Of a DNA stretch of 64,000 nucleotides, positions 16,755 to 54,894 are shown piece by piece; within the stretch, counting starts at the first letter, position 1, and every line of letters starts with the position of its first letter. The notes below the pieces were generated by a model. That model was not told where the DNA came from and did no database searches. It saw nothing but the letters and a program-made list of their open reading frames with translations. The position numbers and the translations under genes are program-made. The stretch is from a virus (Duplodnaviria > Heunggongvirae > Uroviricota > Caudoviricetes), in IMG/VR virus record IMGVR_UViG_3300037512_000782, positions 32,001-96,000 of that record; one strand, written 5' to 3'.

Positions 16755-19712
16755 CTAGAACATCGACAGCATGAAATCGCTCTCGTCGTATTCGAGGCGT
16801 TCATCCCAGCCGACGGCTTTGAATAGACGGCCAAGCACTTGAGCCACGCAAACCTTCCAGTGTTCTTCCCAGTCTGGGTGGAAGATTTCGAGCAGACGAG
16901 GCGGACATTTATCGCCAGTATAGCAGATGATGCTAACGCCAAACAGACGGTCGGCCTTCTTAATGAATCTGATCTTCGATCCAGCGTACACTGGTTCGTA
17001 AGGGAACTTCGAGAGTTCCGGGTCATTCTGGATAAGGTAATTCCACACAGCACCAGCCTTGACGCGCCAGTCAATCTTCTTCTTTTCTTCTGCTGGCATG
17101 CTGTCAAGAACTTCGAGCGGAGGCGGATCATTCTTGACGCCGCACGGACATGCGATGTAGCTGAAATTCTCCTTCTGCACGGAATCGAAGAATTCCTTCT
17201 TGATTTCGAGCAAGCGGTTACGCACCGTCGCCTTGTCCATGGTATCCATCATCAAGTCCACCATGTCCATCATACGATCCTTACCGAACAAAGCTGTAGA
17301 GCTTCGTACAAGTTCAAGACCAGTGATGGCGTATTCTGGCTTGACCGCAAGAGTACCCTTGACCCACTGCTTGTTATCGTCCTTGTGACCCAAGTCGAGG
17401 TAGACGATGTCTTCCATGCTTTCCACCAAGCAGATGTACTTCTTCTTGGCGGTCACGATAGCCTTGTGGATGCACTTCTCTCGCTTTAAGAACAACTCGT
17501 TCGTCAAGTAGCCCCACTGGTTAGCGTAACTGAGCATGTACTCGTCAAGTTTCTCTTCCAAGATGCAAGCATCAAGGATTCGGCAGAAGTCGGTAAGTCT
17601 GTAGCGGTTGTAGATGATGCGGTAATCGCCCGTCATGAAGATACCGTCGGCGAAGGTAATCTGCGCCTTCGTCCATCCAGTCTTTTCATCTGGTGTACGC
17701 ATTTCCGCGCCAGTCCAATTTTCCTTACCGTACTTCGTGCAGAGGCGGTTGAACGCCTTCTTGGAGTCGAGTTCGTGGTCGTTGTCGAACGAATAGCGTT
17801 CCACGATTTCGTGCTTGTCGAATACGATGACCTCGGTGCCAGTTCCTTGCTTCAGTCGGAACTGTTCATAGATGTCGCCGAACTTCACGAAGAAGGAGTC
17901 AGTATCGCCGTGGCTCATGCGCTTGTAATTCACTTCGCCTTCGGCATCGGTGAACGTACCGACAAGTTCTGGGTCGATATCCGGCTCGTATCCGAAGACC
18001 TTCTTGAATACTGGGTCGCTATGGATATCGTTGTTGATGTATTCAGAAAGACGTGCAATCGTGTACTTGATGAGGCGCTGGCCGTAAGCGGTAATGGAGG
18101 CGGCATTGTCCACGTCGTACAGAGCAAATAGTTCAGAACCCATCAAGCCATACAGAGAGTTTCCAAGCACCTTGTACACTTTCTGCATCATATCATAGAC
18201 GCCAGCCATTTCCTTGTCGCCGTTCTTCTTGGCCTTCTTCATCTGCTTCTTCAAGTTGGAACGACCGTCGAACAGAAGCCTTGTAACTTCTGGCACGACG
18301 CCGACCTTGTCCTTGCGGAAGTAGACTTGGTAGCGACCGTTATGATCCCACGGAGACTTAATAAGATTCTTCTTTTCTTCTTCTGTAAGCACATAGTCGA
18401 TCGGGAACGTGACCTTCATCTCCGGTGACGTGTTGAACGTCATCATGATAGAAGGATACAGCGATCGATAGTCATAAGATACTAGGTATTCCTTGTAGCC
18501 CGGAACAGAGTACACGAAAGCGCCAGGGAACACTTCCTTGTGCTGCTGGCGATACGGCGGGAATGTACGGTTCGTGTGGTGAAGATGATCCAGCATGAAG
18601 CCAGTAAGCATCTTCTTGGACGAGAACACAGACGAGAACGGAACACGAGCAGCGGCTGCAGAAGTAACCGCGAGGCGGAACATCTGAGCCTTAATTTCAA
18701 TCTTTACAAGGAGCTTGACGTCTTGGAAGTTATACAAGACATAGTCTTCCCAGTACTTCTGCCAAGACAGATAGCCGTCTGGAAGCGGAGCCTTGCTCTC
18801 ACCAACAATCTTTTTACCAATATAATCGAGTTTGTATGAAGCCTCTTCAGAGAAGGTGTACTTCTTGTAGAGTTCAAGGAAGTCAATAACTTCAGTACCG
18901 TTAATTACCAACTCGTTCTTGGCATTCAAGTATGCGCGTTTGTTCTTACCGCGCATTCTGGATAGTAAGTCGAGCGAAATACGGTCTTTCGGCGGAAGCT
19001 TTTCGTTAACTTGCTTCAGTCGATTGCAAATGTAAACAGTATCGAATCCGAAGTTCCAGCCAGACAAAATGTCGAGGTCGCTGGCACCAATCTGGAATAG
19101 TAACTTTGTAAGGAGGTCGGCTTCATCCGTACAGAGGATGTACTCGCCATTGTTTTCCTTTAGGAACTGCTTGCCCTTTTCGGAAATGTCCTTGGCGACG
19201 CCGTAGGTATAATACTTGTCTTCTTTGGATACGTAGAACGTAACGACATTGATAGGATACTTCGCTTCGGTCGGTAGAGAGAATCGGCCAGTCGTGGCGT
19301 TTTCAATATCGAGGAAGCCGAGGTTGATATCCTTCATGTCTGGGTGAATGACACCCGTATCGGCATAATGCTTTTGTAAAAATCGGCCACGTGGGTCAAT
19401 GTCGATTTCCGCAAGGTGATTAGTCGGCCCAGCATGGTTCTGCTTGATGGCCTTCTCAACTTCGAATGCGGACACTCCGTTGGCTGGGGGAACTTCTACC
19501 TTGTATACATCCCTATCCCAGATGTCCTTCATGCCGCACGGCTTTGCGCCGTATTCACCTTGCTTGTCGGTATAGAACTCATGCACCGATGGAACGGCAT
19601 CCATCGTGCCGTCCGTGTACCAAACGTACATGCGGTCGTTCTCCGTATCATGGAAGATCGAGCGCCACATAGGACGTTTTGGTTTTGCTTCTTCTGGTGT
19701 AATCTGAGCCAT
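16755..19712 (-). CDS. gp43: Family B DNA polymerase (gp43-like)
   Basis: Exonuclease motifs DIE, GWN..FD, YNFQD; polymerase motifs DYRSLYPS, KVLGNSLYG, GDTDS, KKKY. Confidence 0.96.
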   Translation of the reverse strand: MAQITPEEAKPKRPMWRSIFHDTENDRMYVWYTDGTMDAVPSVHEFYTDKQGEYGAKPCGMKDIWDRDVYKVEVPPANGVSAFEVEKAIKQNHAGPTNHLAEIDIDPRGRFLQKHYADTGVIHPDMKDINLGFLDIENATTGRFSLPTEAKYPINVVTFYVSKEDKYYTYGVAKDISEKGKQFLKENNGEYILCTDEADLLTKLLFQIGASDLDILSGWNFGFDTVYICNRLKQVNEKLPPKDRISLDLLSRMRGKNKRAYLNAKNELVINGTEVIDFLELYKKYTFSEEASYKLDYIGKKIVGESKAPLPDGYLSWQKYWEDYVLYNFQDVKLLVKIEIKAQMFRLAVTSAAAARVPFSSVFSSKKMLTGFMLDHLHHTNRTFPPYRQQHKEVFPGAFVYSVPGYKEYLVSYDYRSLYPSIMMTFNTSPEMKVTFPIDYVLTEEEKKNLIKSPWDHNGRYQVYFRKDKVGVVPEVTRLLFDGRSNLKKQMKKAKKNGDKEMAGVYDMMQKVYKVLGNSLYGLMGSELFALYDVDNAASITAYGQRLIKYTIARLSEYINNDIHSDPVFKKVFGYEPDIDPELVGTFTDAEGEVNYKRMSHGDTDSFFVKFGDIYEQFRLKQGTGTEVIVFDKHEIVERYSFDNDHELDSKKAFNRLCTKYGKENWTGAEMRTPDEKTGWTKAQITFADGIFMTGDYRIIYNRYRLTDFCRILDACILEEKLDEYMLSYANQWGYLTNELFLKREKCIHKAIVTAKKKYICLVESMEDIVYLDLGHKDDNKQWVKGTLAVKPEYAITGLELVRSSTALFGKDRMMDMVDLMMDTMDKATVRNRLLEIKKEFFDSVQKENFSYIACPCGVKNDPPPLEVLDSMPAEEKKKIDWRVKAGAVWNYLIQNDPELSKFPYEPVYAGSKIRFIKKADRLFGVSIICYTGDKCPPRLLEIFHPDWEEHWKVCVAQVLGRLFKAVGWDERLEYDESDFMLSMF

Positions 19713-49665: not shown

Positions 49666-49693
49666 TGGAATCACCCATATTTAATCGGCAAAT

Positions 49694-49747
49694 AGTTTAT
49701 CAATTTTCGCGAATAAACTACGATATTTTCAGCAAAACTGATAAACA
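49694..49747. promoter_or_regulatory. Divergent late-type motifs
   Basis: GATAAACT (-) at 49694-49701; AATAAACT (+) at 49712-49719; GATAAACA (+) at 49740-49747. Confidence 0.6.
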
Positions 49748-49772
49748 TTAGCTAACGAAGCGAGTCTATGCC

Positions 49773-51746
49773 ATGACATTCGATGAATACATAAATCCCA
49801 AGCTAGCCGACATTGAGAAGCAGTCGATCAAGGACACGATCGCTGGGCTCAAGAGTTTGGTCGCAAATCCAGACAACGTTTCCAAGGACGAAACAAAGTT
49901 ATCGGCTGCCATCAATATCGCAAAAATTTTGATGGGCGGAAAAGGCATTAAGCGCAATGACACCGTCATACCGCCAGAGCAAATATGGACGGCGGTCAAT
50001 AATGCGCCACCAGCACAGCTAAATTTCTTGTCTAAGCCCAGAACCGAGAAAGACGCCGTAGCGGCAATGGTTAAGAAACTTCAAAAGGCCGCACCGAAGA
50101 CTGACGTACTGGCAGCAGATTCGTTGCTTGACGACAACCCGGCAGCAGTCGCCGACAATGATGCTCAGAAGGCTGAAGAAGTACAGAAAGCCGAAGAAGT
50201 ACAGAAAGCCGAGGAAGCACCGAAAGTCGAGAAAGTACAGAAAGCCGAGGAAGTACAGAAAGCCGAAGAAACACCGAAAGTCGAGAAAGTGCAGAACGCT
50301 GAGGAAGCACCGAAAGCCGAGGAAGCACCGAAAGTCGAGAAAGTGCAGAAAGCCGACTTCGATCCGTTAGGCGTGTGGGGTGCATTTGATGATCCAGACT
50401 TAAATATTGACGATGCTGCACCTTTGAGCATAAATGCAGACAATACTCCAGCAGTAAAGTCCGGGCAATTAAACGACAATTCTCAAGATAATACGCTTGT
50501 GGTTAACCAGTCGTTGCCAGCAGCAAATCAAGCGGCAGCAACTCAAACAGCAGCTCCAGCAGTGAAAACTCCAGCAGCGAAAACTCAAGCAGCGGCAATT
50601 CCAGCGGTGAAAACTCCAGCGGTGAAAACCCCAGCAGCGGCTCCAGCGGCAGCACTGCCGACCGAAGATATTCACCAGCAAAACGACGATCCGGATATCC
50701 CAGACACGGCAGACCCAAGGGACGAATTCAGCGACCTCTACGACGAAATCGACAATCTTTCGATCTCGGCAGAGCAAGCCGAAGAAGCCAAGAAGTATGC
50801 CGACCTGGTATTGACCGAGCCTAACGACTATCCTCGCGAATACGCCATATTGTCTGGCGGTGCTTCCGCAAACCGTACCAAATGTGTTAAGGCGATGCTA
50901 ATAACCGCCAACAAGCGTATAGGATATAAGGCCCCGGTGTCCAAGCGTGGAGACGACAAGCTCGACTTCCAATCTGGTGTGGTATCCCAGTCCAAGGGTC
51001 GCCCTCGTGTTGGAGCGTCCCTTGTCATGCCGTCTGGTTTCGGTTTGAAGAAAAATGCAGCCATTTGGAATACTCCGGTCATTACCGACTTCGGCTATCC
51101 ATTCCTCAACTTCAGTAGCGAAGCCATGCTCAGCGTCATAAAGTCCAAGAAAGATGACGAAGCACTCAAGAATAGCAACTTGAAGAAGATGTTTAAGGAA
51201 GCGGCCAAGCGCTATGGCGGCATCTGGAAGGCGATCTATTCATCGCCGCTGACCCTCATTCGCCAGATTGCATCCGACGTCGGCATCAAGTGTACACCTA
51301 AGTACTTGAAGGTCGATGGTTCAGACTTATTGAACTCCGACTCTGGCGAAAACGTGACGGTCATTCCGATCAAGTATTACAGTATCGACCCAGAGTTCGA
51401 AGGATTCATCAACGTACCGCGTGACTTCCTCACGACATTCTACGATGTCATCGACTACAGCAGCACATCGAAGCGCATGTACTTGAAGTACGCACAAGGA
51501 ATGTCGGAAGAAGAGTTCGCTGAAGAGATTTCGGAAAATCGTGGTGTGCCACCGTTCTACATTCTCGTGCCCAAGCAAGCGAAGTTCAGCAAGTGTCACA
51601 TTCGCGGCGGTAGCCTATTAGGTTCCCTAATGAATGTCATTTTGGGACGCAAGAAGTGTACGATGGTCAAGACAGTATTCCAAGGCAAGCGCGGATGCCT
51701 CGCCATGGAGACCGATACAGCTAACACACTATACGCCGATATCTAG
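49773..51746 (+). CDS. Hypothetical protein with internal repeats; paralog of the next gene
   Basis: KAEEVQ/KAEEAP/KVEKVQ and PAVKT repeats; C-domain DFGYP, DPEFEG, GVPPFYILVP. Confidence 0.8.
   Translation: MTFDEYINPKLADIEKQSIKDTIAGLKSLVANPDNVSKDETKLSAAINIAKILMGGKGIKRNDTVIPPEQIWTAVNNAPPAQLNFLSKPRTEKDAVAAMVKKLQKAAPKTDVLAADSLLDDNPAAVADNDAQKAEEVQKAEEVQKAEEAPKVEKVQKAEEVQKAEETPKVEKVQNAEEAPKAEEAPKVEKVQKADFDPLGVWGAFDDPDLNIDDAAPLSINADNTPAVKSGQLNDNSQDNTLVVNQSLPAANQAAATQTAAPAVKTPAAKTQAAAIPAVKTPAVKTPAAAPAAALPTEDIHQQNDDPDIPDTADPRDEFSDLYDEIDNLSISAEQAEEAKKYADLVLTEPNDYPREYAILSGGASANRTKCVKAMLITANKRIGYKAPVSKRGDDKLDFQSGVVSQSKGRPRVGASLVMPSGFGLKKNAAIWNTPVITDFGYPFLNFSSEAMLSVIKSKKDDEALKNSNLKKMFKEAAKRYGGIWKAIYSSPLTLIRQIASDVGIKCTPKYLKVDGSDLLNSDSGENVTVIPIKYYSIDPEFEGFINVPRDFLTTFYDVIDYSSTSKRMYLKYAQGMSEEEFAEEISENRGVPPFYILVPKQAKFSKCHIRGGSLLGSLMNVILGRKKCTMVKTVFQGKRGCLAMETDTANTLYADI
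50167..50356 (+). repeat. Coding tandem repeat, 18-bp unit, about 10 copies
   Basis: Variants of CAGAAAGCCGAGGAAGTA / CCGAAAGTCGAGAAAGTG. Confidence 0.85.
50556..50652 (+). repeat. Degenerate coding repeat (CCAGCRGTGAAAACT; PAVKT)
   Basis: Several 15-bp units. Confidence 0.65.
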
Positions 51747-51750
51747 CCAT

Positions 51751-51766
51751 TGTTTCACGTGAAACA
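51751..51766. promoter_or_regulatory. parS: parS centromere-like site (ParB/Spo0J binding)
   Basis: Perfect 16-bp palindrome TGTTTCACGTGAAACA, identical to the canonical bacterial chromosomal parS consensus; intergenic. Confidence 0.85.
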
Positions 51767-51767
51767 T

Positions 51768-51796
51768 CAAAAATCCGTCTTTAGAGGCGGATTTTT
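51768..51796 (+). terminator. Intrinsic terminator
   Basis: AAAAATCCGTCT-TTAG-AGGCGGATTTTT. Confidence 0.75.
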
Positions 51797-51807
51797 CGTA
51801 TTTAATT

Positions 51808-51815
51808 GATAAACT
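51808..51815 (+). promoter_or_regulatory. Putative late promoter GATAAACT
   Basis: 26 nt before the ATG at 51842. Confidence 0.6.
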
Positions 51816-51841
51816 AACCATAGATTAAATTCGAGTTTCTG

Positions 51842-53416
51842 ATGGCCACCAACGAAAAGAATCTTCTTGAAAGTGAAAACGATGATAAGGCAATCGCCGC
51901 AATCGACCACACCTTGGATATGTGGGTCAAAGATGACGCGCAAAAAGCCAAAATAAAAGAAGCAATCATGTCTTCGTTCAAAGCTGACGCCAGCAACTAC
52001 GATAAGTTCACCGAGGATCCAGTTAACTATACTCGCGCATACATCGAAAAAGCTACAGAAGCTCCAGCGGAACCAGTACCGACCGATGTAATTTCGCCGA
52101 AAGAATCCGACGAAACACCAGCCGATGATGATAATGGCGAACCAGAAACACCAGAGGAAGAAGATGAAATCAAGGAGACAGCGCTTGATAATCTCGCCAA
52201 GATCTATCCGGTAATTGCCAAGGAATACAAGCTCCGCTTCCGTAACAACGGCGAGGATGCTGAAAAGCTCGCCGAATACACTCTCAAGATTGTCGAAGGC
52301 AGGGGCACTAACGCCGCCAAGTGGAAGCAGTACCTCGACGAAAAGTGCAACAAGGGCACCAACAAGGCGATGATCCAGAATAAGGTCATTCCAACGCTCG
52401 TGAAGGCTTACAATGCCAAGGGTAAGGACGAGATCGAACTTACACGCCAAGTCAACGACGAGCAAACCGCTGGTCTCAAAGACCGCAACGGAAATGACGC
52501 TGGCCATATAATCGTACCGGAAGGTTTCAACCAGCCGCCTATCGAACTTGGTGACCAAGTGGTCACTATGGACTTCGGCTATCCGGCGATCAACTTCAAC
52601 AGCACCTTGATCAAGGAAATCGTTGGCGAGACCGACAAGCCGCGCCTCAAGAAGCTCCTCATAGCTCTCATGAACCGTATCGACGGTTCGCCAGCTGGCA
52701 AGGCATTGATCAAGAACTTCATCTTCAGCTTCTCACTCACCAAGACCACCAATGGCGTTAAGCGTTCCGAAATGTACAAGCTCATCAAGGAAGCCGCATC
52801 AGCACAGGGTATTCCGATGCTCCGTCGTCCGTTGAAGGTAGAAAGCGAACAGCTCGTTGGAAAATCCGAAGCCGACACGATTAAAGTTCAGCCGTTGAAC
52901 GCAGTCGCCAATCCGAAGAACGAATCTCTCGACTTCCTCGAATACGATCCGTTGTTCGAAGGCTGGTTCTCAGAAAAGGTTCTCGGTCGGAGCAAGGACG
53001 AGAATGAACAGCATGTATACGGCAAGCCAGTCGAACTACCATCGGCCTACGTCAAGCAGTTCTACACCGTCTTGGTTCCGAGTGGCCCGACTGGTCTGCA
53101 CTACTACGCTCGCTACATGACAGATAGTGAACGAAACGCCATCTACAAAAAGCTCGGCGACAATTCCGAAGACGAAATCAAGACCGGAAACCGCAACGTG
53201 AACGACATGATTCTCAAGCGCTACCTCGATGAAACGAATGGCGTTCCGCCGTTCTATCTCCTCATGCCGCGCACCAAGCCAACCAAGGAACGTCTCCGCG
53301 TCTGCGACGACACTGTCGTAAACGGAAAGGTATGTATCAAGTCGATCGAAGGCAAGAACAAGGATGCATACTTCATGGACAAGGACAAGATCGACTCCGT
53401 ATTCGAAGCTGGTTAA
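51842..53416 (+). CDS. Hypothetical protein, paralog of 49773..51746
   Basis: DFGYPAINF, YDPLFEG, FYTVL, GVPPFYLLMP; N-terminal NLLES. Confidence 0.8.
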   Translation: MATNEKNLLESENDDKAIAAIDHTLDMWVKDDAQKAKIKEAIMSSFKADASNYDKFTEDPVNYTRAYIEKATEAPAEPVPTDVISPKESDETPADDDNGEPETPEEEDEIKETALDNLAKIYPVIAKEYKLRFRNNGEDAEKLAEYTLKIVEGRGTNAAKWKQYLDEKCNKGTNKAMIQNKVIPTLVKAYNAKGKDEIELTRQVNDEQTAGLKDRNGNDAGHIIVPEGFNQPPIELGDQVVTMDFGYPAINFNSTLIKEIVGETDKPRLKKLLIALMNRIDGSPAGKALIKNFIFSFSLTKTTNGVKRSEMYKLIKEAASAQGIPMLRRPLKVESEQLVGKSEADTIKVQPLNAVANPKNESLDFLEYDPLFEGWFSEKVLGRSKDENEQHVYGKPVELPSAYVKQFYTVLVPSGPTGLHYYARYMTDSERNAIYKKLGDNSEDEIKTGNRNVNDMILKRYLDETNGVPPFYLLMPRTKPTKERLRVCDDTVVNGKVCIKSIEGKNKDAYFMDKDKIDSVFEAG

Positions 53417-54397: not shown

Positions 54398-54894
54398 TTA
54401 GACCAGATAGGTTCAAGCGTCGCGACAGAAATCTGATCGGACGTGTTATTCCATTTGTAGTTGTTGCCGACAACGATCATCAGTATATCGTGCAACACGG
54501 ATCTCACCAGACCGTTCTTGACCGTCTGTAAAACAGTGTTGATGTACATCTTGTCACACTCTTCACGACTGTAGTCATTGAACCCGGTCTCCTCGTACAA
54601 CGCGGCAAGCGCAAGAGTTACGCACGGATCCAACTTTATTCCGATCAGTCCCAGCAGATAGATAACAAACTTCGGCAGAGGATGCTTCGCGGCAAAGCCT
54701 TTCTTGATGGTAAGGCGACTGCGCACACTGGTAAAATCCATGCTCGTCATTTCCTCAATGTCATCATCGACGTCGCCGTTCAAGATAACAATGTCGGCTA
54801 CAAGTTTGTCCTTCAACTTGCACACGCCATCTTTTTCGACGGCGGCATGCTTGTACTTGTCTGGAATAATAATGGTACGGATATACTGTGACAT
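54394..54894 (-). CDS. Hypothetical protein (weak DUF1353-like pattern)
   Basis: LTIKKGF...ALYE...SREECDKMY. Confidence 0.55.
   Translation of the reverse strand: MSQYIRTIIIPDKYKHAAVEKDGVCKLKDKLVADIVILNGDVDDDIEEMTSMDFTSVRSRLTIKKGFAAKHPLPKFVIYLLGLIGIKLDPCVTLALAALYEETGFNDYSREECDKMYINTVLQTVKNGLVRSVLHDILMIVVGNNYKWNNTSDQISVATLEPIWSN

Follow-up and report, generated by a model that had tools for sequence, protein, structure and literature searches.

The locus described here lies in a window of 64,000 nucleotides, bases 32001-96000 of the IMG/VR record IMGVR_UViG_3300037512_000782, a viral genome of 348,092 bp with 50.4% G+C that was estimated by CheckV to be 91% complete. Among the proteins encoded there are a major capsid protein of the T4 type (Pfam Gp23, E = 3.5e-64), gp32 and a DNA polymerase of family B, and these three justify the label T4-like jumbo phage; an earlier note on the window had already called the phage T4-like. 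DNA of this phage is present in bovine gut and rumen metagenomes from 12 studies, and no match to the locus at the DNA level was found among deposited phage genomes. Phages of the T4-like type are expected to be strictly lytic.

Two genes on the plus strand, ORFA (49773-51746, 657 aa) and ORFB (51842-53416, 524 aa), are separated by a short intergenic region in which the palindrome TGTTTCACGTGAAACA occupies positions 51751-51766, being assigned to neither strand. This 16-bp sequence, a parS of the chromosomal type, is an exact match to the ParB/Spo0J consensus TGTTNCACGTGAAACA, the parS consensus of Bacillus subtilis (PMC7022226). A gap of 4 nt separates it from the TAG stop codon of ORFA, and a gap of 2 nt from the intrinsic terminator of that gene (51769-51796, plus strand), which consists of a 12-bp stem, a 4-nt loop and a T-run (RNA fold -13.6 kcal/mol, z -4.5). 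Both the perfect site and its intergenic placement between a stop codon and a terminator, as first claimed, were found again. The number of exact 16-mers expected by chance is 64000/4^16 = 1.5e-5 per window, the value given in the earlier note and correct for an exact match, and 8e-5 per genome. A scan of the whole record returned this single copy in 348,092 bp, with no further parS at up to three mismatches in either the window or the record. Near matches at that threshold are not significant, since 0.44 are expected per window from shuffled sequences, and the weight thus rests on the exactness of the site and on its conservation.

Neither ORFA nor ORFB was assigned to a Pfam or PHROG family. 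Cross-matches in tblastn indicate that they are weak paralogues, both with a variable N-terminal part of low complexity and a conserved C-terminal domain; in ORFA the variable part makes up the N-terminal half, and the conserved domain spans approximately residues 310-657. A total of 96 ORFA homologues was found, none of them named, on contigs of up to 475 kb. The closest ones (97-82% identity) are carried by long ENA/Logan contigs that reach this length, and homologues of both proteins are confined to contigs of giant-phage size. The AlphaFold model of ORFA (pLDDT 77) gave nothing at E <= 1e-3 when compared by Foldseek with PDB and BFVD, a wide VIA-align search gave a best Z of 6.0 for one 81-residue helical stretch only, and a protein atlas search yielded no usable match.

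The motif GATAAACT is located on the plus strand at 51808-51815, 26 nt before the start codon of ORFB. It has 38 copies in the genome, where about 10.6 are expected, and further positions in the window include 49693-49700 (minus strand) and 49741-49748. For 45 of 52 occurrences of KATAAACT an ORF of 80 aa or more begins downstream, its ATG mostly 23-29 nt away, and GATAAACT precedes ORFB in the relatives too. The motif probably represents a late-type promoter specific to the phage, an analogue of the T4 late promoter motif TATAAATA. The spacing between parS and the ORFB motif is 42 nt in this phage and 10 nt in L144, a relative with two sites.

The minimum of the genome-wide cumulative GC skew falls at window position 54837 (genome position 86837), between ORFD and a stand-alone polymerase gene and 3.1 kb from parS; the maximum is at genome position 219968. 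The earlier placement of the site about 5 kb from an origin-like region was therefore roughly right as to distance, but the origin itself is not proven, as skew in phages also tracks gene orientation and the minimum only hints at an origin.

Relatives of the phage were retrieved via the neighbouring polymerase gene and by alignment of ORFA homologues, single-protein searches of IMG/VR with ORFA and ORFB having given none. Gene order around parS is kept in these relatives, the ORFA-ORFB synteny included, and the ORFA stop codon anchors the position of the site in all of them, the first parS always lying 3-6 nt past it (8/8 lineages). In all, 13 sites were recorded in the 8 distinct lineages, with one to three per genome and zero or one mismatch in every site. 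One exact site is found in the window lineage, in L137/L139/L140/L172 and in L141/L142. L129 (= L121) also has one site, with C at an outer position, and the single site of L143 reads TGTTCCACGTGAAACA. Arrays have grown to two or three copies in three lineages: L136/L138 has two sites, each with a central CATG, L144 combines TGTTTCACGTGGAACA with an exact copy, and L127 (= L120) carries three in tandem, an exact site between two with one mismatch each. On a 175-kb contig of one relative there are three tandem sites and no others, and the loci of about 10 kb available for the relatives contain no additional site at two or fewer mismatches.

Across the eight lineages the mean pairwise identity is 95% for the site, as opposed to 59% for the last 16 coding nucleotides, 40% for the first 16-nt block downstream and 34% for the second. 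The lineages differ in stop codon (TAG, TAA or TGA), in spacer and in terminator stem, a terminator being present at the equivalent place with a different stem sequence. This is the pattern expected under selection, a site that is conserved (95%) among flanks that are not (34-40%). The earlier note had staked its proposal on conservation in relatives, where the site is indeed kept at a fixed position, with expansions in copy number.

At the level of strains, the 16-mer is unchanged in three variant contigs, in which positions 51746, 51747 and 51784 vary; with a divergence of about 3%, approximately 0.5 changes are expected per 16 nt, so that this adds little. In strain variants from two other cattle-gut runs (X4 and X10), some 375-393 bp located 3' of parS have been swapped for about 785 other letters. 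The swapped part corresponds to window positions 51777-52171, which hold the terminator, the promoter and the initial 330 nt of the ORFB gene, and parS is retained.

An IS605-type TnpB element, with an end of the form GAACTAC-hairpin-CTTCGCG, is present in the ORFA-ORFB spacer of three relatives (TnpB ORF at L120:14860-16068; IS end at approximately 4760-4830 in L141 and 6048-6120 in L148). In L148 the IS end abuts ORFA in place of parS and the terminator and provides the ORFA stop codon. The possibility that parS is a component of this element was rejected, as parS occurs in lineages that lack the IS; no parS at up to three mismatches accompanies the IS copies of bacterial MAGs, which also speaks against an IS origin.

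A maximum likelihood tree of the ORFA C-terminal domain comprises two clades, each with 100/100 support. Each of the three main branches of clade I includes lineages with parS, and clade II has none; two near-complete clade II genomes (355 kb, 93%; 308 kb, 81%) have no site at one or fewer mismatches. Within clade I, parS has been lost from the L130 type, in which synteny is intact, and from the L128/L149/L153 type, in which ORFB is no longer downstream. The simplest history would be that parS was gained once, in the ancestor of clade I, and was later amplified locally in some lineages and lost from others. Loss in clade I lineages and absence from the two clade II genomes indicate that the site is dispensable, and the near-complete genomes of the sister clade without parS mark it as an accessory feature, not a core one. 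Judged from these comparisons, the site is selectively maintained yet dispensable.

Partition genes were searched for in the whole 348-kb record with six-frame HMM searches, for which control genomes gave matches. No ParB_N (PF02195), HTH_ParB (PF17762) or ParA-type AAA_31 (PF13614) domain was detected at E <= 1, and tblastn of five candidate-host ParB proteins against the phage genome gave a best E of 0.67. Contigs of three relatives (175, 58 and 32 kb), searched for ParB_N, had none. The observation in the earlier note that the window lacks parA and parB thus holds and is also true of the entire record. On these data the parS described here is an orphan site, with the caveat that the record is 91% complete and a ParB gene could sit in the missing 9%.

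In bacterial chromosomes, origin-proximal parS clusters load ParB-CTP clamps, engage ParA and recruit SMC, as described for B. subtilis, Caulobacter, Pseudomonas and others (PMC7022226). The phage site is like these systems in its identical 16-bp sequence, in the variants that are tolerated and, as a hint from GC skew, in its proximity to an origin. It differs in that the DNA is viral, that all proteins would be supplied by the host, and that one site is present instead of a cluster of 3-10.

The presence of a host-type parS on phage DNA has a precedent. The virulent phage phi29 is described as having five parS sites, with Spo0J implicated in the movement of its genome into the prespore (PMC2731898). 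The same source summarises the work of Meijer et al. (2005), according to which the host-type parS of phi29 and Nf allow Spo0J-dependent entrapment in the prespore (PMC2731898). In a rescan of the phi29 sequence EU771092 (L224), four copies of TGTTTCACGTGGAACA and one degenerate site were found. The site at 17243-17258 lies between the stop codon of gene 16 (17242) and a bidirectional terminator (17262), 1 nt after the former and 4 nt before the latter, and this stop-parS-terminator layout is the same as that of the present locus. The two phages also have in common that they are of lytic type, lack parA and parB, and carry the ParB site of the host chromosome, that is, a host-consensus parS in a phage without partition genes. 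On the other hand, phi29 is a podovirus with a protein-primed genome of 19 kb, over which five sites are dispersed; its host forms spores, and spore entrapment is the known pay-off, whereas the phage described here is a 348-kb T4-like, myovirus-type phage with one site (one to three in relatives) near the GC-skew minimum. Its candidate hosts, for which Fibrobacter and Prevotella are leads (see below), are probably non-sporulating, so the pay-off probably differs from that of phi29. The novelty implied by the earlier note is thus reduced, since phi29 makes use of Spo0J and carries five parS sites of the host type (PMC2731898). The principle is already known from phi29, from which the present case differs in the T4-like, 348-kb phage type, the single site near the skew minimum and the probably non-sporulating hosts. 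Literature searches on natural parS in jumbo or lytic phages returned the phi29/Nf work only.

Plasmid-prophages and extrachromosomal prophages have self-contained partition cassettes, such as the parABS of P1, the sopABC of N15 and the parABS of mycobacteriophages; these phages are temperate, and each cassette supplies a ParA and a ParB together with private site sequences. These cassettes resemble the present locus in placing a centromere-like site on a phage genome, with inheritance that needs no integration; here, however, no partition gene was found, neither parA nor parB stands beside the site as in a self-contained ParABS cassette, and the site is the host's own. Systems of the KorB/OB type, or orphan ParB proteins of phages, are comparable in that a ParB-family clamp loads on mobile DNA with no ParA to partner it. 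They need an element-encoded ParB and tens of dispersed sites, and the present phage has neither: its 348 kb contain one site, and no ParB gene was detected.

Orphan parS sites may extend well beyond this clade. The exact 16-mer was found in at least 119 IMG/VR contigs (L001-L119), compared with 2 for the reversed palindrome (L222-L223), counts that possibly include host or plasmid contamination. Of the 119 listed loci, 34 have two or more sites, and up to five exact sites occur within 800 bp among the matches listed (for example, L021 and L060). A ParB-like gene was detected by tblastn in the fetched flanks of 1 of the 119 listed loci, the flanks being short and the sensitivity limited. Orphan parS looks common in viral contigs, and the excess of at least 60-fold, with nearly all loci devoid of a nearby ParB gene, suggests that phi29 was the first example of a common habit and not an oddity.

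Leads to the host come from the TnpB protein encoded beside the parS array of L120, whose sole close relatives (85% amino-acid identity) are found in two rumen MAGs, one labelled Prevotella (one 3-kb contig) and the other labelled Fibrobacter (three contigs). A single IS element, 85% identical, underlies the two leads, and phage or IS contigs can be misassigned when MAGs are binned. ParB_N proteins are encoded in both MAGs, which also contain the exact 16-mer, and the Fibrobacter MAG has four variant parS sites 2-7 kb from parB. Sites with one or fewer mismatches occur in 38 of 41 Fibrobacter genomes, usually 3-6 and clustered, and in 32 of 41 Prevotella genomes, usually 1-3; the reversed control gave 0 in both genera. 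The variants seen in the phages, namely C at position 1, C5/G12 and the central CATG, are all found among the chromosomal sites of Fibrobacter and Prevotella. The proposal of the earlier note would have been undermined by a host ParB that recognises a different sequence; this is not so for the candidate genera, whose chromosomes bear the exact site along with its variants. Of 251 long phage ORFs, 49% have a Shine-Dalgarno-like motif ahead of them (background 12%), and G peaks at -11 to -7. A signal of this kind is unusual in phages of Bacteroidota, which is relevant if the host is Prevotella, and it mildly disfavours a Bacteroidota host without being decisive. If ParB does load there, parS itself would narrow host prediction to bacteria with a canonical ParB.

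The site is a genuine and conserved feature, and the 16-mer is most likely a functional orphan parS at which the ParB of the host would load. Its retention across the clade in the absence of partition genes suggests that the phage most likely loads host ParB onto its own DNA. The earlier note had left it open whether the phage hijacks the ParABS of the host or its own. The former version is favoured over the latter, no ParA or ParB gene of the phage having been detected. We infer that ParB binding is what selection acts on.

It is improbable that the palindrome is instead the operator of a phage DNA-binding protein unrelated to ParB, acting on the ORFB promoter or on ORFA termination, with its identity to parS due to convergence or mimicry. 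An operator would suit a site that always lies between the stop and terminator region of ORFA and the GATAAACT motif of ORFB, with the L144 pair only 10 nt from the motif, and most phage proteins in this region have no known family. However, the site is unique in a genome in which the promoter motif has 38 copies, and host ParB sites match it exactly, in its natural variants as well. Moreover, host ParB is predicted to bind the site anyway, and the ORFA domain had no match to a DNA-binding fold.

That the site is a neutral passenger, whether a palindrome arisen by chance or a piece of host DNA that the IS may have carried in, is very unlikely. The IS605-type TnpB element does occupy the same spacer in three lineages, and the site is lost in some lineages and absent from clade II. 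Against this, a passenger would hardly be 95% conserved next to non-coding DNA at 34-40%, nor would it be found in IS-free lineages and in no case beside the IS copies of bacterial MAGs. The arrays of two or three copies, which arose independently, and the chance expectation of 8e-5 per genome also argue against it. Equally slight is the chance that the site belongs to a private partition system, served by a diverged ParB-like protein of the phage or of a helper element that is encoded in the missing 9% or lies past the reach of HMM detection. The 91% completeness of the record leaves room for such a gene, but the domain searches at E <= 1, tblastn and the contigs of three relatives gave nothing, and private systems normally have private sites, which avoids cross-talk with the host chromosome.

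The least probable reading is that the site acts as RNA, a 3'-UTR hairpin stabilising the ORFA transcript or aiding its termination: the site does belong to the 3' end of that transcript, a 6-bp stem with a 4-nt loop is possible just before the terminator, and the order of stop, hairpin and terminator is conserved, but the hairpin is weak (-4.7 kcal/mol, z -2.1), no pair is kept by compensatory change, the stem letters are nearly invariant where true terminator stems vary freely, the T5>C change of L143 breaks a pair, and the identity to the host ParB site and the tandem arrays would be left unexplained. A known RNA family was also rejected, the best Rfam match (RNAI) reaching 25.3 bits where the gathering score is 47.

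If the site is indeed a loading site for host ParB, the chromosomal ParB of the host, a CTP-dependent clamp of the Spo0J type, would recognise the phage parS, load there and slide along the adjoining phage DNA. Loading would mark the 348-kb phage genome in the way that bacterial origins are marked. Several consequences of such marking may be envisaged. The one given the most weight, about two fifths of the whole, is that the phage genome would be coupled to the ParA/ParB-dependent segregation of host origins, so as to be positioned and passed on during a carrier or pseudolysogenic state in which lysis is postponed, a non-sporulating counterpart of the entrapment of phi29. With about half that weight, loaded ParB could recruit host SMC, which would organise a very large genome marked near its origin. 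A similar weight is given to a role in which ParB is soaked up as phage copies rise, host chromosome segregation being disturbed as a result. Somewhat less weight, about three twentieths, is given to a local action of bound ParB as a roadblock or repressor between the terminator of ORFA and the promoter of ORFB, where it might insulate transcription.

The single site present here, where chromosomes typically have 4-10, counts against a centromere-like reading, and no maintenance genes that would support a carrier state were found in the phage. A more far-reaching proposal is that an origin-proximal centromere lets the ParB, ParA and SMC of the host treat the 348-kb genome as a small chromosome, that orphan parS is a widespread and largely undescribed strategy, and that it permits a heritable, non-integrated carrier state in slow-growing rumen hosts. 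This proposal is tentative, and rather doubtful as a whole.

The 16-mer is a cheap and testable marker, and its natural variants and the lineages that have lost it can serve as controls. If host ParB does load at the site, a phage type supposed to be strictly lytic would have a handle on the segregation and SMC machinery of its host. A carrier state, if true, would be a lifestyle unexpected for T4-like phages, and the finding would bear on how giant phage genomes are organised in cells and on how uncultured rumen phages persist between bursts.
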